This document shows, piece after piece, positions 3,501 through 42,141 of a stretch of 64,000 bases of DNA (positions are counted from its first letter, which is position 1; every line of letters starts with the position of its first letter). The stretch is taken from positions 4,898,001 to 4,962,000 of the forward strand of contig OX597821.1 of assembly GCA_951406725.2 (NCBI GenBank). The letters are read 5' to 3'. The notes below the pieces were generated by a model. That model ran no database searches. It saw only the letters and a list, made by a program, of their open reading frames with translations, and was not told the origin of the DNA. The position numbers were made by a program, and so were the translations under genes. This DNA comes from Octopus vulgaris. Its lineage: Eukaryota.

Positions 3501-5076
3501 AGTAAATATTTAAGGATACATTTCCAAAACCTTTCACTTTTAGTTTGGAGCTAAAGATTCCGGCGTTCGAACTTCCAACAATTGCTAGACATCCCTAGAA
3601 ATATAAATTATCGACATAATGTAAATTCGAAATATCAAATTCACTTCAACAGATCCCCGGCTGAGCAGCATTACAACCAGAGCCGCACTTGAACACACAG
3701 GAATTTTCATCCTCTATATCCAGCGAAACAACCTGTTATCGTTTTCGGGTCTAGCCACAAAGTTATTTTGGATATGGCATACCCCGTTCAGTTTGACACT
3801 ATATAATTTTTTATTGCACAATGTAATTTATATCTACCTCTGTATGTGTGTATATATGTTTATCGTTGTTATATTTGTAGTCTATTTTTTTGCTATATAT
3901 AAATATTAAAAATAGTAACAGCTGAGTTATAAACACAGTAGGCTTGTTACATTTCTTCAGTTTCATCATTCATCATATGTCATTTATCATTTACGTATTT
4001 CTATTGATTTGATTGTTTCAAATTTACTAAATACTGTAACAACACAATGCATAATACAGCTCCGAGATGTTAATTTACTTACTGAAAGGCAATATTCCAC
4101 TTTTTCGATACTCGGAGAGTCCCATATATCAAACCGCATCCATAGATGTATGTGTTGCAAAATATTCCGGGTGTCTCTTCATTTGCATTTTCAAATCAGC
4201 CAAAAGCAAATCGATTCTGGAAATTCCCAGCGCAATGTTGTTACAACTTTATTATTTGCAACACTAAAATTATAACAACATGGATGAAAGTGACCTAACA
4301 TCACCTAAGCCTGGCAGTAAATTACTGGAGAAATTTCAGGGTATTCATAATTTTGATGCTGCATAGAGGCAGAATTATAGCTATGCGTTAATTCTACAAA
4401 TAGTAATGGTGAGTATAATAAAGAAAATTATTTTGGCTTTAATTACAATTCTGAGGATATAGAAGAGAGCAAACTGAGACATTTGCTATATGTAAATGGA
4501 ACTTGTCATTATTTATGAAATTTGTCTTAATAATCTCTGTCATTTTTGCCACAGAATCCATCAAAATTTCCTTTGATTAAATTAATATAATTATTGCTGC
4601 CGACACCTGGGGAAATTAAACTTATAATTATTAATGGAAATATAGCCAAGACTATATTTTCTTTTTCGGAACTCAGCATTCAAATTGACATTTAAATAAG
4701 GAAGGTATATTTCATAGCAAAAAGAAACAAAAAATTCACACAGCTATGATAAATATCTTTCGGTCAAGTAAATGCCACGATAATAACTGCTAACACAGAT
4801 ATCAGTTTTAAAATATCTCGTTGACAATCAGTATTAAAATATCTTACTGACATTCAATATATTTCCCTCCCATGTGTATACGCTGTTAATCAAAATAACA
4901 GTTTAGACATCTTCAGTGTAATTTATTATGATGTTTTAGCACATAAGACATGTAAGGAAGTTGTCTTCCTAATATGGAATATATATACATATACACATAT
5001 ATGCATGCATATATGTATATATATATATACACACACACATATATATACATACATATGTACATATACTTATGCTCAT

Positions 5077-5107
<31 letters not shown>

Positions 5108-5239
5108 CATGCCTATATATATGCACATCTATACATGTATATATGTGCGTGTATGTACAATTTTGAGGACTGTCTGCATACATATACCTGTGTGTTTGTG
5201 CTTGTGATTTTGTGTGTGTTTGTGTGTAAGTGTGTGTGT

Positions 5240-5283
<44 letters not shown>

Positions 5284-6369
5284 TCGTTGCAACTCAACTT
5301 CGAGTTACTGAAAGCACTACATGGCTGTTTAGGTCTACTAAGGACCTACAGCGCTTAGCAAATATGTGACAACGTTGAGCGCTTATTCCAGTGGGTATTC
5401 AGAGAATTACAATCCATGTTAAAACATTAAATTCTGGAATTTTCCATTGAATATCTTACTGGTTTTGACTACATGTAACTCTCTCATGAAGCACATTATA
5501 GAAATGCCACATATAAAGAGATGACTGTGTTTGAAGCTTTTTTTACAACGAGGAAAGGACTTGCATGATGTCAACTCCACTGTAAAAAGTCCCTGCAGTT
5601 GCCTCAAAATAAGGTGGCTACTTCGTGGTTGTTATATCAGAGTTGTCCTTCTCCTGGTGAGATCCATAAAACCTCACACTTCCAGCTGATGGATGGCGAT
5701 TAGCTTCATTGAGTTCACGTGCTCTTTGACAAGTTTTGTTTTCATCTTGCTTGGTGTCCAGTGAAAATCATTGTCCGTACCAATCAGGATTGTAAATTTG
5801 TGCTCTTTAGTCGCAGATGGCCTAACCGTGCATACAAAGTAATTTATTTTTAAAGGTGGGTTTTGAAGTATTTAAAGTTATAAATAGTAGCGTGTAAAAC
5901 ATTGGGTTAAAAGAACCTTTACATTAAATAAAGTCAATGGCTACCGGTAAAACTGGAACCGACATTTCTGTAAATATGATAGACGTTCTGACCATAATAC
6001 CAAAGAAATTCTTGGAGGTTTATCCATCCATATTAGAAGCTTTATTCTCCCCAAAGGTGTTTATATTATTCAGACTTTATAAAGTTCGAGCCTTATTGGC
6101 TTTGAGAACTCAAAGTAGATAAAGTTATAAATATTAGTGTGTAACGTATCCGCTAAAAATATGATACTGTGGGTGAGAAAATTTTGAAATCTGAAAGTAG
6201 GACTCGCCCTCATCTTTTGTAAGTACGTCAGACATTCTAACCATGAAAGAACAGTTTTCATAAGGGAACACTTAGCATTTTCTCCTACCATTCTCGAAGT
6301 TTTGATCTTGCCAGCAAGAATTATATGAGAATTACCTTATGAGAATCTATAGACTGCACGAGATATGAA

Positions 6370-7190
6370 GTAAGACTAATAATGTTGATTTGGTAAATGG
6401 TGAGATTGTATGACATCTGTATAAAACATGTAGGTTTGAATTATACGAGTAACCTTAGATTTCCTTCCAATTTCTTTCCAGATATGAAGCTTATAACAAC
6501 GGACTTTTTCTTCAACCTTGTGCGTGAGCAATATCTTCCCTCTTGCTATTTCTAATCCTCGTCGATGTTCCATTTTCTATATATTCCACAAGAAACCATT
6601 GCATATACCAGTAAAAGTAAGTGACATTATTCAGCCAGGATCCTTGAACACCATCTGTTCCCGAGTCTTTCCAATTTTTTGCATCCTGCTTTAATATCAA
6701 TATTATCTACACCCGTTTTATTTTCTTTCTTTTATTGCCTAAGTCACTTTCAAATTTGTATAACCAGTCCACTTTCCTGTTGTGATGAACATATTTACTT
6801 CAAATATCTGATCAGATGTACTTTGCAGGTTCAACGTTTGTCACATTATTATTCCTATGTATATATTCAGTTGTTAAGATATCCTCTCATTGTTTCTGAA
6901 CAGGGCTGTGCTGATGCTGCTCTATTCTTTATCGGTATCTAGTTTTAATGACATTGTCTTTACATTTTCTCTTATCCTTTCTTTCACTATATATAATCCG
7001 CTATCTATGGTGTGGTACTTTCTATTAACCTTGTGCCTGTGTGTTTACCTCACCATCTGTTATTCAATTATTGCTTATAACCTTCTAACATCTCTTTTGT
7101 GATATTCAACATCAATTTTCAAGCCATTTTGTTTGGCTGTTATACTACAAGAATGTTGTGGCGGCAGAACTTGCATATTTTATGTCGTCA
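6370..7190 (-). mobile_element. Old R4/Dong-type non-LTR retrotransposon fragment (pre-RT and RT domain 0-1)
   Basis: Broken frames give KNWKDSGTDGVQGSWL...EYIENGT and IARGKILLTHKVEEK, similar to the KNWKAPGxDGIxGYWLK...WLxxGRTxLIxK pattern of R4/Dong RTs. Abuts the (ATT)n tract at 7209. Confidence 0.55.
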
Positions 7191-13172: not shown

Positions 13173-13183
13173 GTGTATATATA

Positions 13184-34249: not shown

Positions 34250-34532
34250 ATAATCTACTGTGATATACAGTAGATCCGACTATGATTGAATTATATCTAG
34301 CTTTGTCTTCTGTACTTTATGGAAATAAATAGAATTATTAAATGGTACACATGGACTGATATTCTTATTTCCTAGCTACATATATATAGTAAATGTTTTT
34401 ATTTTTCATTCCCTTGGAGAATTTATCCTTAATTAGTGGTTTGGACTTTAGCTGTTCTTTCTAGTGTAAAGGATTCCTATGATGGAAACCTCTTAATGTG
34501 TTTAAACGTACACTGTATTTTATATGAATATA

Positions 34533-34722
34533 GGCGTAGGAGTGGCTCTGTGGTAAGTAGCTTGCTTACGAACCACATGGTTCCAGGTTCAGTCCCACTG
34601 CGTGACACCTTGGGCAATTGTCTTCTACTATAGCCTCAGGCCGACCAAAGCCTTGTGAGTGGATTTGGTAGACGGAAACTGAAAGAATCCCGCCGTATAT
34701 ATGTATATATATATATATATAT
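34533..34722 (+). mobile_element. Family B SINE, 5' half (interrupted by the PLE)
   Basis: Matches 13184-13365 and stops in the internal (TA)n. Confidence 0.9.
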
Positions 34723-34898
34723 AATAAATATTAGGGAATAAATCCAAATTTACAGGGAAAAAATCAGATTTAGGATTAAATCCAATTTTATAGTAAAATA
34801 TTATATAATATTATTAGAGACAAAACCACTATTTTGCAAAACAAACAAGGAAAGACTTAATCAATACATAAAATTTTAATAAAAAGTCAAAAAAACCG

Positions 34899-34941
34899 CC
34901 ACTACAATTGTTTCTTGTCCTGATCGACAATCTTCAGGTGG
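34899..34941 (-). ncRNA. Minimal type I hammerhead ribozyme in the PLE pseudo-LTR
   Basis: Minus strand: CCAC-CTGAAGA-TTGTC-gatcag-GACAA-GAAA-C-AATT-GTA-GTGG. Stem III is the palindrome ACAATTGT. Confidence 0.88.
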
Positions 34942-36050
34942 ACTTCCAATCTAAAATATCAATATTTTAAAATATAAAAATAATAATTTTAAAATAATTA
35001 AAGTATTAATGAAAAAATATAAATATATAATCTATATATAACCTATATATAATCCATATATAATCAATATATAAACAATATATAAATAATAAAAACTAAA
35101 CCTATCAACAATTAAATATAAAATATAAAATATAAAATATAAAACAAAACAAAAAATAAACTATATATACACCCATACACATATAACTAATTATATATAA
35201 CCATATCTAAATACATACACTAAATCACACACCTATATATATATCCCTATACATACACATAAAAACGTCTAGGCAACGATAAATAAATAAAATAGCCAAA
35301 TACTTCAACACAATACTTATTCATACTCCCTCACACACACATACAACCCACATTCCCGCTCTGGAAACGGACATCATTTAAAATCATGAATGGAGAAATG
35401 GAACAAATGGAATTAAAAATTATATTCACATGGTAAAACGAACATTACTTAAAAATTATGAATGAAACAATGCAATAAAACAACAGACATCGTAAATAGA
35501 CACAAATTACTACGAATTCCTTAACAAAACTACCATGACAAACCAAAACTCATAAAAACATATAATGATAAAATCTCCCTTTACTAAACTCTATAACATA
35601 CCTATATAGCAATCCCCCTAACCTAAACATTCACACACAAATACACACACGTAAACCACACACCCACGACATATACAAATACCCACCTCACTCACACATA
35701 CCTATACATATATATAAACCTCAATATATACTCCAAAAACCCACTCAACCCCACACAGACAAATAAACACATACATCCCCAAACCTATATAGTAAACCCA
35801 TAAACACATTCACACACAAATATACATACGTAAAACACACACCATATACATATACATACTCACTAAACTCGATATATACAACAATATTAACACACCCACA
35901 CTTATACAGACAAACAAATTATGCAACCAAAATACACACACACTCACACACAATCCCACATACATAAACACTCCAAATAAAAACAACATTATTACACATA
36001 ATACGATATATAAAATACATCGTAAGTAACCAGAATAATTAAAACTCATA

Positions 36051-39000
36051 AAAACATAAATGATAAAACCTCCCTTTACTAAACCCTATAACATACTTAT
36101 ATAGCAATCCCTTTAACCTATACATTCACACACAAATACACACACGTAAACCACACACCCATAACAAATACAAACACCCACTCACACACACCCACAAGTA
36201 CATATAAGCCTCAACATATCCACCAAACAAAATTACGTTACCAAGGAACCTAACATATGTATAAAAAGTATTCCCGCTCTGGAAACGAACATCTTTTAAA
36301 ATTATGAATGGAGAAATGGAAAAATGGAATTAAAAATAATATTCACGTGGTAAAACGAACACCACTCAAAAATTATGAATGAAATAATGCAACAAAACAA
36401 CAAACACCGCAAATAGACAAATTACTACGAATTCTTTAACAAAACTACCATGATAAACCAAAACTCATAAAAACATATAATGATAAAATCTCCCTTTGCT
36501 AAACTCTATAACAAACCTATATAGCAATCCCCCTAACCTAAACATTCACACACAAATACACACACGTAAACCACAGACCCACGACTTATACAAATACCCA
36601 CCTCACTCACACATACCTATACTAACGTATAAACCTCAATATACACCAAAAACCCTACTCCCTCCCCACACAGAAAAATTAACACATACATCCCCAAACC
36701 TATATAACAAACCCATATACACATTCACACACAAACACACATACGCAAAAACACACACACACAACATATACATATACTCCCTCACATATACGCATATACA
36801 TAATCACTAAACTCGATATATACAACAATATTTACACACCCACACTCATACAGATAAACAAACTATACAACCAAAATACGCACACACTCACACACAATCT
36901 CACATACATAAACACTCCAAAGAAAAACAACATTATTACACATAAAACGATATATAAAATACATCGTAATTAACCAGAATATCAAAAATAACAATAAGAC
37001 ATAAGGAGAAATAATATACATACAAGTCAGTTTCAAATTATGAAGTGAAATTAAATTCTAAGCCGTTAAAAAAAACCAAACCAAAATTACGTTACCATAG
37101 GAACATAACTTATGTATAAAAAGAATACGCGCCATGGAAGCAAACGTCATTTAAAATTATGAATGGAGAAATAGAATAAATGGAACTAAAAACTATATTC
37201 ACGCGGCAAACCAACACTACTCAAAAAAATTATGAATGGATTCTTTAATAAAACTACCATGATAAATTATTATATGTATTTATGAGCTTTAGCTCATCTT
37301 GGCAGTTTCAACAAACAATTCGTAGCAATCCACGTCTATTCCCGATGTCTGCCACTTTACTACATTATTCCACTCCCAATCCTAAGCAACGCTAGCCCAC
37401 CACCCGGTTACAATTCCCAATTCCATTTATTCCATTCACAATTTCAATGACGTTCGCTTCCATAGTGCTACGTATGAGCCTCAATATATGCACCGGTGAT
37501 TCGCTTCCACATCCGTGCGGATGGGTGAGAGTATGCATTGAGTGTAGTGATGGGGCTCCCTTTGCTATGCACGTTTGTACCTAAAACCATAAATGATAAA
37601 ACCTCCCTTTACTAAACCCTATAACATACTTATATAGCAATCCCTTTAACCTATACATTCACACACAAATACACACACGTAAACCACACACCCATAACAA
37701 ATACAAACACCCACCCCACTCACACACACCCACAAGTACATATAAGCCTCAACATATACACCAAACAAATTCACGTTACCAAGGAACCTAACATATGTAT
37801 AAAAAGTATACCCGCTCTGAAACGAACATCTTTTAAAATTATGAATGGAGAAATGGAAAAATGGAATTAAAAATAATATTCACGTGGTTAAACGAACACC
37901 ACTCAAAAATTATGAATGAAACAATGCAACAAAACAACAAACATCGCAAATAGACAAACTACTACGAATTCTTTAACAAAACTACCATGATAAACCAAAA
38001 CTCACAAAAACATATAATGATAAAATCTCCCTTTGCTAAACTCTATAACAAACCTATATAGCAATCCCCCTAACCTAAACATTCACACACAAATACACAC
38101 ACGTAAACCACAGACCCACGACTTATACAAATACCCACCTCACTCACACATACCTATACTAACGTATAAACCTCAATATACACCAAAAACCCACTCCTCC
38201 CCACACAGACAAATTAACACATACATCCCCAAACCTATATAACAAACCCATATACACATTCACACACAAACACACATACGCAAAACACACACACACAACA
38301 TATACATATACTCCCTCACATATACGCATATACATACTCACTAAACTCGATATATACAACAATATTTACACACCCACACTCATACAGATAAACAAACTAT
38401 ACCACCAAAATACGCACACACTCACACACAATCTCACATACATAAACACTCCAAAGAAAAACAACATTATTACACATAAAACGATATATAAAATACATCG
38501 TAATTAACCAGAATATCAAAAATAACAATATGACATAAGGAGAAATAATATACATACTTACAAGTCAGTTTCAAATTATGAAGTGAAATTAAATTCTAAG
38601 CCGTTAAAAAAACCAAACCAAAATTACGTTACCATAGGAACATAACTTATGTATAAAAAGAATACGCGCCATGGAAGCAAACGTCATTTAAAATTATGAA
38701 TGGAGAAATAGAATAAATGGAACTAAAAACTATATTCACGCGGCAAACCAACACTACTCAAAAAAATTATGAATGGATTCTTTAATAAAACTACCATGAT
38801 AAATTATTATATGTATTTATGAGCTCTAGCTCATCGTAGCAGTTTCAATAAACAACTCGCAGCAATCCACGTCTATTCCCGACGTCTGCCATTTCACTAC
38901 ACTATTCCACTCCCAATCTCAAGCAACGCTAGCCCACCACCCGGTTACAATTCCCAATTCCACCTATTCCATTCACAATTTCAACGACGTTCGCCTCCAC

Positions 39001-39119
39001 AGTGCCACGCATGAGCCTCAACATATGCACCGGTGATTCGCTTCCACATCCGTGTGGATGGGTAAGAGTATGCATTGAGTGTAGTGATGGGGCTCCCTTT
39101 GCTATGCACGTTTGTACCT
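36051..39119. repeat. Two tandem ~1.53-kb direct repeats (36051-37582, 37583-39119) inside the PLE
   Basis: Both start AAAA(C)CATAAATGATAAAACCTCCCTTTACTAAACCC and end GCTATGCACGTTTGTACCT. A further partial copy lies at ~35350-36050. Confidence 0.93.
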
Positions 39120-40234
39120 GTGTGGTAGTCTCCATGTGTATATTCGCGCACGGGTATAAATGCGGGGGGTATTCGCGCACGGCATGTGCGTGTACCCCTC
39201 ACATGTATGTGTGCATGCTTGTTGGGCTCGATATGTGCAACGGTGTGTTCGCGCCCGCATTCATGCGGATGGGTGAATTGCACAATTAAAATACGCACAC
39301 GTGTGTGTGTGCGTTTTTTGGTTGTGTAGTTTGTTTATCTGGGTGTGAGTGGGTGTGAGCGTATTGTTGTGGATGTCGAGTCTGATACGTATGTATATGA
39401 GTGTGTTTGGGGGGTTGTACGTATGTGTTGTGTGTGTGTGTTCTGCGCATGCGCGCCTGTGTATGGATGAATATATGGGGATTGCTATGTGGGTGTAATT
39501 GGGTATGGAGGGGGAGTTTTGTCATTGTATGGGTGTGGGTTTCATTTGTGATGGTGGTTTGTTGGTGATTTGTGGTATGTTCTGTATATTTGGGTTAGTT
39601 ATGTATTGTTCTTGTGTGTGTAATTGTATACATGTATTATTGGTGTGAGTGGGATTGCGCCCATTTTTGGGGATGTATGTGTTTATCTGTCCGTGTGGGG
39701 CGGGAGTGGTCCCTTGGTGCATATGTTGAGGCTCATACGTAATTTCAGGTACGCGTGAATGAAGTGGGCACTTGTATTTGTTATGGGTGTGTGTACTTTA
39801 TTATAACAGACAATACCCAAATAAAATCTGTCAATTCAACATACCAAATAAAAAACAAATAAAAAACAAAGGGATCGTAAACATTCACACATACATACAA
39901 AACTCAATATATACACCACTAAATAACACCCATCATCCATATAAATATATCCTCCAATATACATATAACAAATGCATAATAAAAATACATAATAAAATAA
40001 AATAAAAATAAAAAATATATAATTAAAGAAAATAAAAAAATCTAATATAAATTATTAAAGTTTTAACGTACCATAAACTGTTATATTAATATACATTAAA
40101 AATGAACTAATTAAAACAAAGAAATATCAACAAAGACTAACTATAAATAAAGCCTAGACTACATAACCAAATAAATATAATTATCTAAACTAAATTAAAC
40201 TAAACTAAAGTAACCTAATAGGGAACTATTAAAG

Positions 40235-42007
40235 CTATTTATCATGAAACTTATTATATAGGTAAAGTAACTTATGTCTGCATTTTATTTTGCGCTCTTC
40301 ACCAGTATTAAGTAAATTATCATACTTATAAAATAAAATTTCTTTAAACTCATTATAGCATAAATAACAACAATTAGCTCCTATAGTATATGATTTAGTT
40401 TTACAAATTATTTCCCAAATTAAACTATAATTAATATTTAGTGATTTAAGACTCCAAATGTACTTACTAAGTCCGGTTGAGTTGATTAAGTTTTTATTTT
40501 TAAAAGAATTCATATGTTGTGCGATTCTTAATTTTGAGGAAGTACTTGAGGAAGTAGAACCTATATAAACCGCTTTTGGGTAATTATTATTCTTAAAGTT
40601 ATTATCATGTAATGTAACTATACATTTATACACTACATCGTTAATATCACAATTATTATTTAATATACAATTAGATTTATCTCTACATGTACAATTAATA
40701 TAAGTCTTATCATTATTAATATTATTACCTAATAATTTCTTTTTATAAAAATTATTCAGTTTATATTTATTAAATGAAGAAATAATGTTACCTACATTAT
40801 TAGTGGTAGAATAACCTACTCCAAAATTATTAATAGAGAAAATGTTTCTATATTTACGATTATCTCTAATAAATAGTTCAATAACATCTAAAATCTCTTT
40901 AATAATATTCGTTTTTACTTGATCTCCATAAGGAACTATTAACCAAATTTTATTCTTATTAACCTTATTATTATTATCATTATTATAAATATATTTATAA
41001 TTCTTCATTTTATTAAAATTATTATCAGAATTATATCTATGTACAGCATTTAAGGAATTATTAATATTATTAATTTTATCAATATAATTATTATAATAAT
41101 TATTAAATTTATTTTTATTTTTATTATTCTTATTTGTATTATTATTATTATTATTTTTATTATTATTATTATTATTCTTATTTATATTTTTATCATTTTT
41201 ATTATTTTTATAATATCTATTATTTTTACCACTAAACCTAACAAAATTATAATTATTATTAGAAGTATCTCGAAAATTATCATTTAAATCTTTATCACTA
41301 ATATTATAAAATTTAATATTCCTATTATAACCTGCCCCTCTAAGGGCCTCATTATAATAATTAGCATGTTTATTAAAAATCTCTATATCATAAGAGAGTA
41401 ATGAAATACGTTTACTTATATTATTAATCAACGATTTTTTAATAGAAAATGGGTGATTACTATTAACATTTATATATCTAAGGTTCTCATTAAGTTTATG
41501 ATATGGTTGTGTTTTACCAGTAATAAGATTAAAATTAACATCTAAATAATTAACATTATAATTCTCCTTATATATAGTAATACTTAAACCATATCTTTTA
41601 AAGAAACTATATAGTTTTTTCTTATATACTTCTAGATTCCTATTAGTACAATTCTTTGTAACTAGTAGAAGATCGTCTCTATATAAGCCACCCTCTATCT
41701 TAAGATTTTCTAATTGGAGTTCAGATAAAAGAAAAATACCTACTAAATCAGTAGCCTGTGCAGAATCTGGTGCTCCCATAGGTATATCAAAACAATCTCT
41801 AGTATCATTCCTAGCCCATAATTTATTTTTATATTTAATTAGCGATTTCCTAGCCATTTTAATTACATTAACTTCTTCCCGTGACATACCCACTTTATTC
41901 ATTGCGAAAATAAGCGCTTTATTAAACACAATTTCATTAATAGAAGAATAATAATTATCTATATCTATTTGAATAAATTTAAAACGATTTTTATCTTTAA
42001 TATTATT
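40235..42007 (-). CDS. PLE polyprotein, N-terminally truncated: RT core, thumb, Asn-rich linker, Cys motif and GIY-YIG endonuclease
   Basis: The frame is open from 42007 to the stop at 40235 and extends upstream of the called GTG as KFIQIDIDNYYSSI (RT motif with catalytic Asp). It also contains IPMGAPDS, GLYRDD, NYLDV, CTCRDKSNCILNNNC, VVYK...YIGST...RIAQH, CYLC...E and terminal CRH. Confidence 0.93.
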   Translation of the reverse strand, partial: NNIKDKNRFKFIQIDIDNYYSSINEIVFNKALIFAMNKVGMSREEVNVIKMARKSLIKYKNKLWARNDTRDCFDIPMGAPDSAQATDLVGIFLLSELQLENLKIEGGLYRDDLLLVTKNCTNRNLEVYKKKLYSFFKRYGLSITIYKENYNVNYLDVNFNLITGKTQPYHKLNENLRYINVNSNHPFSIKKSLINNISKRISLLSYDIEIFNKHANYYNEALRGAGYNRNIKFYNISDKDLNDNFRDTSNNNYNFVRFSGKNNRYYKNNKNDKNINKNNNNNNKNNNNNNTNKNNKNKNKFNNYYNNYIDKINNINNSLNAVHRYNSDNNFNKMKNYKYIYNNDNNNKVNKNKIWLIVPYGDQVKTNIIKEILDVIELFIRDNRKYRNIFSINNFGVGYSTTNNVGNIISSFNKYKLNNFYKKKLLGNNINNDKTYINCTCRDKSNCILNNNCDINDVVYKCIVTLHDNNFKNNNYPKAVYIGSTSSSTSSKLRIAQHMNSFKNKNLINSTGLSKYIWSLKSLNINYSLIWEIICKTKSYTIGANCCYLCYNEFKEILFYKYDNLLNTGEERKIKCRHKLLYLYNKFHDK

Positions 42008-42065
42008 TTATGTATTGATTAAGTCTTTCCTTGTTTGTTTTGCAAAATAGTGGTTTTGTCTCTAA

Positions 42066-42077
<12 letters not shown>

Positions 42078-42141
<64 letters not shown>

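Follow-up and report, generated by a model that had tools for sequence, protein, structure and literature searches.

Host deaminases of the APOBEC family leave one-strand bursts of changes, termed DNA editing, in genomic copies of vertebrate LTR retrotransposons. The locus described here, a hairpin in a Penelope-like element (PLE) of Octopus vulgaris, resembles these scars in the putative involvement of a host deaminase and in one-strand bursts within retrotransposon copies, but APOBEC changes are G>A, arise by deamination of cDNA and are not tied to a duplex, whereas those of the Penelope hairpin are A>G and are confined to predicted double-stranded RNA.

ADAR-linked A-to-G hyperediting is known from the avian retroviruses RAV-1 (Felder 1994) and avian leukosis virus (Hajjar and Linial 1995), both as cited in PMC8586724. 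As there, A>G changes are clustered on one strand of a reverse-transcribed element and RNA edits appear to have ended in DNA; unlike in the viral cases, the edited molecule seems to have founded a multi-copy, inherited, nonviral lineage, which was later re-edited and in which the changed strand switched with an inversion. The Drosophila sigma virus (PMC2790459) is similar in that roughly one adenosine in two was changed within a delimited region, with the preference A=U>C>G, and in that the inference was based on outgroups; it differs in being a viral RNA genome whose edits are rare and not fixed in host DNA. A-to-I hyper-editing of repeat transcripts is strongest in octopus and frog, and Penelope is heavily edited in lizard; ADAR acts there on repeat dsRNA, including Penelope, with upstream G depleted, as it may have done here, but the edits described in PMC5625713 concern RNA only. 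For human L1, PMC5224506 reports an editing-independent restriction by ADAR1 in which no edits were found. Our literature search, largely confined to open-access papers, found no report of ADAR edits fixed or inherited along a retrotransposon lineage. Reverse-transcribed one-strand A>G changes and APOBEC scars are known; the present locus adds a hairpin birth dated against unedited relatives, an intermediate copy and a strand switch at an inversion.

From sequence comparison, we consider it very probable that the hairpin is a fold-back in which about half of the arm adenosines were changed to guanosine, likely by ADAR acting on the sense RNA with the edits fixed by the element's own reverse transcriptase, and that its antisense orientation stems from one later inversion in a subfamily founder.

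A G·U-rich hairpin in the 3′ region of a Hydra-type Penelope-like element

We analyzed a stretch of 64,000 nt (GCA_951406725.2, contig OX597821.1, positions 4,898,001 to 4,962,000 of the forward strand), here called the window, and all coordinates are given on it unless stated otherwise. The hairpin is composed of three parts.

39005..39300, plus strand: left arm, the inverted duplicate, heavily A>G, with a 141-nt deletion junction near 39078
39301..39306, plus strand: loop, as defined by pairing and fold
39307..39740, plus strand: right arm, the original repeat unit, also A>G, as defined by a pairing census

Direct counting of 39267-39300 against 39307-39340 on the plus strand gave 23 Watson-Crick pairs, 10 G·U pairs, and 1 mismatch, exactly the figures in a preliminary description made from the letters alone. 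Mononucleotide shuffles of the right arm, the type of control proposed there, failed to reach this pairing, with at least 33 of 34 positions paired in 0 of 200,000 shuffles and a maximum of 28. The plus strand of 39005-39790 folded as one extended rod with an energy of −367.6 kcal/mol (20 dinucleotide shuffles gave z −17.8), compared with −172.4 kcal/mol for the minus strand. Consistent with the earlier statement that wobble-rich pairing continues outward from the core, the whole stem (39005-39300 with 39307-39740, about 290 pairs) contained 169 Watson-Crick and 99 G·U pairs; 7 A·C and 17 other pairs made up the rest, and the deletion in the left arm left a single large bulge. The best matches to microRNA families in Rfam were generic hairpin matches far below threshold (30.3 bits against a gathering threshold of 94) and do not support a microRNA precursor.

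The left arm had been described as a direct copy of a nearby A/C-rich unit rewritten by A-to-G and C-to-T changes, and both parts of this statement needed revision. The copy relation holds for 39103-39302 against 38220-38421 (117 matches, 51 A>G, 20 C>T, and 11 others), but not for 39005-39078, the outer end of the arm. As for the changes, comparison with hairpin-less relatives over 211 columns confirmed A>G in the left arm (56 of 96 A sites) and left little of the C>T (9 of 57); the inner part of the right arm showed A>G at 24 of 51 sites, and 70 of the 78 G·U pairs in the window had an A-U source. Most of the apparent C>T was spurious because the earlier comparison was made to a paralogous unit instead of outgroups, and the polarization by outgroups ruled out A>G and C>T having built the hairpin jointly.

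The element that contains the hairpin is a young Penelope retrotransposon of Hydra type, lies on the minus strand, and carries the hairpin in its 3′ region. It has the following features.

40238..42007, minus strand: 5′-truncated Penelope-like ORF (RT and GIY-YIG, Hydra-type motifs), a 590-aa open frame
41996..42082, plus strand: 3′ end of the element in inverted form, matching the reverse complement of 34798-34883 at 95%
39795..40237, minus strand: proximal 3′ region U1, unpaired and used as an internal control, with A>G at 0 of 107 A sites on internal branches
36049..39119, no strand assigned: tandem duplication of about 1.53 kb at 96.8% (36049-37582 and 37582-39119), which duplicates the sense-strand hairpin
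34899..34941, minus strand: minimal type I hammerhead-like motif found by eye, core CUGAaGA ... GAAA, 93 to 100% conserved in siblings
34720..34883, minus strand: terminal 3′ segment of the element, with (TA)n after it, from sequence and siblings

Beyond the ORF come 5.3 kb of G/U-rich repeats, the hammerhead-like motif, and a 3′ end in (TA)n. At the other side, the element proper ends near 41995, and the inverted piece at 41996-42082 adjoins the truncated 5′ end and precedes (TA)n/(TG)n, a typical arrangement for PLEs according to PMC8557442. The hammerhead-like motif had no Rfam match at E ≤ 5 and was not the minimum free energy fold. A second copy of the tandem-duplicated segment was also present in two siblings (L031 and L064). 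Separately, the outer-segment copies within this duplication differed by about 9% in the window, and a similar joint was seen in contigs of runs X2 and X7.

A Pfam profile search of the 590-aa ORF gave no match. A full-length sibling (L033) had an 841-aa frame with YRDD, PMG, and YIG in order, DKT at 129, CTCRDKSNC at 692, CYLC at 798, and CRH at 827, while the N-terminal RWK was missing and KWK was found near the N-terminus instead. The marks described for Hydra-clade PLEs are DKT in place of DKG, a CxCX5C linker, CxxC and CxH near the C-terminus, and an N-terminal RWK (PMC8557442, section 11). The C-terminal GIY-YIG, the DKT, CxCX5C, CxxC, and CxH motifs, the (TA)n flanks, the hammerhead core motif, and the inverted 5′ piece fit a putative assignment by motif to the Hydra clade. 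On the other hand, the described Hydra-clade families have RWK where the present element has KWK, and their length is generally below 3 kb, whereas the repeat-rich 3′ region of the present family measures about 2 to more than 5 kb and includes edited fold-backs. The family is young, with at least 84 protein matches among the 74 candidates scored, many of them 97 to 98% identical and with frames of about 840 aa.

The G·U pairs derive from A>G changes on the ORF strand

Around matches to the hairpin block, we retrieved 38 loci of ten kb each and sorted the copies by orientation: type W, with the block antisense to the ORF or the ribozyme as in the window, and type S, with the block on the ORF/ribozyme strand. 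Four of the 38 were of type S (L050, L053, L066, and L068), and in these the stem was about 430 bp long and almost free of A·C pairs, as in L068 with 253 Watson-Crick, 169 G·U, 1 A·C, and 8 other pairs. To polarize the changes, we took the columns in which three or all four hairpin-less outgroups aligned and agreed, 412 of them in L068.

In the left arm of L068, A>G was found at 108 of 187 sites, C>T at 7 of 105, G>A at 0 of 20, and T>C at 1 of 100; the corresponding counts for the right arm were 47/100, 0/20, 0/105, and 1/187. Both arms together therefore had A>G at 155 of 287 adenosines (54%) on the ORF strand, compared with C>T at 7/125, G>A at 0/125, T>C at 2/287, and 10 transversions, and 153 of the 160 G·U pairs derived from A-U. 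The three other S copies agreed with L068, and 141 of the 164 changed sites were common to all four. The A>G changes were evenly spread along both arms with sharp edges at the stem ends: the immediate flanks had 0/53 and 0/43, and the adjacent 3′ region and the ORF had 2/328 and 0/352 (Fisher p 1e-61). Over the span of the 155 stem changes, 815 ORF columns changed once. The 5′ neighbor of the changed A was biased (U 69/110, A 40/64, C 27/62, G 9/25; p 0.012), although the depletion of 5′ G taken alone was borderline (p 0.055), and the 3′ neighbor was mildly informative (A 43/63, G 11/17, U 56/120).

These comparisons show that a hairpin-less ancestor gained an inverted duplication of about 430 nt in its 3′ region, which gave a hairpin in the ORF sense; the relative L075 is collinear with L068 except for the hairpin insertion. 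About 54% of the adenosines on both arms were changed to G up to the stem edges, putatively by ADAR at an RNA stage, and the changed molecule founded a lineage, as shown by the sites common to the four unflipped copies. Four loci with an adenosine-deaminase domain were found in the genome; this domain family also covers non-ADAR members. On long dsRNA, ADAR changes up to 50% of adenosines with the 5′ neighbor order A=U>C>G (PMC2790459), and the level in L068 is slightly above this, perhaps reflecting more than one round.

The sense-strand G·U hairpins of an older subfamily (L088 to L099) and several flanking copies were rejected as an ancestral form, as the ones inspected (L095, L089, L081, and L101) turned out to be alternating purine-pyrimidine microsatellites with trivial self-pairing. 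In one hairpin-less copy, L086, the 3′ region is interrupted by an essentially perfect 445-bp inverted repeat at 731 to 1624 nt after the ORF end, with 2 gaps and no mismatch. Such an unedited fold-back is perhaps the kind of starting state inferred for the hairpin.

Besides A>G, C>T changes were also in excess on the ORF strand. Their rate was similar inside and outside the hairpin (7/125 against 5/74; p 0.76), and C>T exceeded G>A regardless of pairing across 38802-40235 and the 3′ regions of siblings: on internal branches, the 3′ regions had C>T at 66 of 338 C sites against G>A at 14 of 287 G sites, and twofold ORF sites had 13 C>T against 4 G>A. C makes up only about 6% of the hairpin-less 3′ regions. 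This excess is real, is not tied to the stem, and is not explained by ADAR.

It shows that another asymmetric process acts, which speaks for a non-ADAR origin of the A>G changes in paired regions, either by misreading of a structured template by the reverse transcriptase or by deamination of DNA in an RNA:DNA hybrid. We consider this improbable, since the level of about 50%, the even spread, the sharp edges, and the U/A>C>G order of 5′ neighbors all match ADAR on long dsRNA, and since the near-perfect repeat of L086 indicates that inverted repeats as such are left unaltered.

A single inversion in the subfamily founder

Most of the other copies have the hairpin in the antisense orientation seen in the window. 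The block, which was mapped to the window from the comparison of a basal flipped copy (L033) with the unflipped L053, is as follows.

38802..39793, plus strand (the former ORF-sense strand): block of about 1 kb that was inverted in the subfamily founder

In answer to the question of orientation raised by the preliminary description, 33 of the 38 siblings had the block in the same place and orientation as the window, with the same neighbors. Among 40 further loci chosen by ORF match, 14 were of type W, none of type S, and 26 had no left arm. A search with an S-specific segment, for which the best 40 of 118 candidates were scored, gave at least 6 matches that included the segment and 35 partial ones, out of 41; of two loci fetched from it, one (L109) was an ORF-bearing S copy and the other (L110) a rearranged fragment. 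The unflipped set thus comprised five copies oriented by their ORF or ribozyme plus L048, an intermediate.

In L053 coordinates after the ORF end, type W corresponds to S positions 1-432, the reverse complement of 2615 to 1484 minus 141 nt, and then 2789 onward; accordingly, positions 434-1426 of L033 are the reverse complement of 2615-1484 of L053 minus the deletion. L048 (G000:C6, about 4574-6440), whose 5′ truncation falls within the left arm and which bears an inverted piece of the 3′ end as a cap, has the deletion junction and lacks the inversion, being collinear like type S; its locus has no ORF or ribozyme, and its orientation was taken from this collinearity. It was rejected as a plain unflipped copy on account of the deletion junction. 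As L048 has the deletion without the inversion, the deletion came first and the inversion second. Of the 28 fixed differences between S and W, 14 were common to L048 (including 5 C>T, 1 A>G, and 1 G>A on the old strand), and 13 were fixed in W only (including 6 T>C, 2 G>A, and 2 C>T), mostly A>G when read on the new sense strand.

We built trees of the ORF (64 rows; L034, L035, L054, L056, and L059 set aside for short ORFs) and of the block (set aside: L048, L039, L043, L067, L090, and L056; L048 was included in a later block tree). The ORF tree was a ladder in which all 36 W rows and three copies without a left arm (L071, L101, and L107) formed one clade (support 100/99), nested above L053, L068, and the hairpin-less L075, L078, L085, and L086. 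In the block tree, L048 was sister to all W rows (bootstrap 100). The trees place one flip at the base of the subfamily, after the editing. The preliminary idea of a block edited in an ancestor and then flipped stands at the level of the family, but not as an event of this particular integration. The window copy is an early-branching W copy, which explains why its hairpin still looks good.

The order given by L048 shows that the 141-nt deletion was followed by an inversion of about 1 kb, possibly by a mechanism like twin priming, which the block geometry resembles. Extension of both target strands by a PLE in vitro is reported in PMC11167929.

New A>G changes after the inversion follow the new sense strand

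We counted post-flip changes by parsimony, in ORF-sense letters, on the branches internal to the W clade of a tree with 43 W and 4 S rows. On a ladder-shaped tree, such counts can be disturbed by homoplasy and by recombination among copies, and 6 G>A in the outer segment look to be of this kind. Two features of the window are needed here.

38803..39004, minus strand: outer part of the flipped block, where most A>G was gained (50 at 80 A sites, internal branches)
38077..38419, minus strand: G/U-rich sense repeat unit, the predicted partner of the flipped right arm in sense RNA, from the pairing census

The flipped block gained 94 A>G, 61 C>T, 8 G>A, and 3 T>C, compared with A>G at 1 of 365 A sites in the ORF, 0 of 107 in the proximal region, and 2 of 110 in the tail. 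No A>G excess was seen at synonymous ORF sites (2 A>G, 4 G>A). The outer part, which is duplicated at about 37266-37465, is predicted to pair in the sense RNA with 36276-36484, with 179 Watson-Crick and 12 G·U pairs in the pre-flip letters and 132 and 52 in the present ones; with the flip, it is predicted to have supplied one arm to new duplexes of the sense strand. The predicted pairing of 38077-38419 with the flipped right arm comprised 236 Watson-Crick, 26 G·U, 22 A·C, and 43 other pairs. The predicted partner units in L033 also gained A>G (8/36 and 8/38) and almost nothing else. This new predicted sense pairing, together with the fresh A>G, accounts for the element's other, sense-strand hairpin. 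The changes came in bursts, with up to 15 A>G on one tip and a per-tip variance/mean of 6.0 against 1.9 (C>T) and 2.6. Their 5′ neighbors were A 43/118, U 29/79, G 6/34, and C 15/140, with C below G, unlike in the founding burst.

In the new sense RNA, the G·U pairs of the old stem are replaced by C·A, and only poor folding is predicted for it. The flipped block, by contrast, is predicted to pair with the downstream repeats, and it gained fresh A>G in bursts. The antisense hairpin is an eroding relic. Over the 43 W copies, its G·U pairs fell from about 39% to about 25%, A·C pairs rose from 1% to about 9%, and other mismatches increased, a trend whose Spearman values overstate its significance because the tips are not independent; the identity of the left arm to an unflipped copy fell from about 91% to 81% while the ORF changed by about 1%.

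The preliminary description had offered the alternative that an antisense transcript forms the hairpin, is edited or selected for its structure, and is copied into new insertions, and indeed the plus strand of the window still folds far better than the minus strand. We found nothing in support of an antisense role for the hairpin, and this alternative is very unlikely. The G·U pairs were already there, in a more regular stem, when the hairpin lay on the ORF strand. T>C on the ORF strand, the mark of antisense A>G, was seen 3 times at 180 sites of the internal branches and was at background level on the tips. Post-flip changes that added antisense G·U numbered 11, against 155 in the opposite sense, and the declining pairing along the W lineage, with fewer G·U pairs and more mismatches in the 43 copies, is not what compensatory upkeep of the antisense strand would give. 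As antisense edits are not normally copied, their absence rules out an antisense origin but not antisense transcription. A T>C excess was present in contigs covering the element, though these are unstranded and the excess is inseparable from differences between sibling copies.

Slightly less likely still is that no editing took place and that selection for pairing tolerated the wobble changes A-U to G·U and G-C to G·U. Selection of this kind gives strand-specific G·U with almost no A·C, as was observed in the unflipped copies, but it should allow C>U as well, and the stem had 155/287 A>G against 7/125 C>T, the latter at the same rate as outside. Moreover, 155 changes in the stem against one in the 815 ORF columns, as many as 15 A>G on single tips, and a neighbor bias without a selective explanation argue against it.

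Finally, PLE insertions often carry inverted pieces (PMC8557442), and the window copy has one at 41996-42082, but a flip in this particular integration or an assembly artifact has a negligible probability, given that 33 of 38 siblings share the orientation and the junctions, that contigs of three independent runs contain the deletion junction (X18, X20, and X13), and that the inversion junction near 39795 is crossed by a contig in runs X1, X2, and X12. The S segment was likewise present in contigs of X18 and X20, and its recovery along with the junction in independent runs shows that neither form is an assembly artifact.

Implications and additional observations

Under the preferred reading of ADAR editing in sense RNA followed by one inversion, A-to-I editing, which is normally lost with the RNA, appears here to have been passed down an active retrotransposon lineage and to have recurred in it. 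The inversion serves as a built-in control, as the changed strand tracks the ORF strand and the changed segments track the predicted pairing; by virtue of this control, dated genomic copies may record germline ADAR activity and which RNA strand Penelope copies. A further caution is that a genomic G·U hairpin restricted to one strand can be the scar of editing instead of a selected structure.

More speculatively, the process may work as a ratchet, in which the element's own inversions keep making long RNA duplexes, host ADAR edits them, and the reverse transcriptase fixes the edits. The editor would then be the main mutagen of the 3′ region, building its G/U-rich composition and converting perfect palindromes into forms that survive as master elements, thereby driving the succession of subfamilies. 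We regard this only as a tentative proposal and doubt it more than we credit it. Arm identity after editing was 59%. The 3′ region had A 0.31-0.33 and G 0.12-0.15 in an older subfamily (L088, L093, L095, and L096) and A 0.24-0.25 and G 0.21-0.22 in younger hairpin-less copies (L075, L078, L079, L083, L085, and L087), a fall in A and a rise in G consistent with repeated editing cycles. The ratio of flipped-type to unflipped matches, 35 to 6 among those scored, is also consistent with the ratchet.

Several other features were noted in the window and the siblings. Three loci (L050, L044, and L062) are double insertions of the tails-out kind, in which ribozyme motifs or copies of the block face both ways. 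The plus strand of the window at 23000-26500 is G/T-skewed, being a degenerate (TG/TA)n microsatellite in which we saw no match to the Penelope element. A dispersed repeat of about 190 nt lies at 34528-34718 and again at 13179, 18114, 26883, and 59389 (87 to 93% alike), and the Penelope copy ends in its TA tail.
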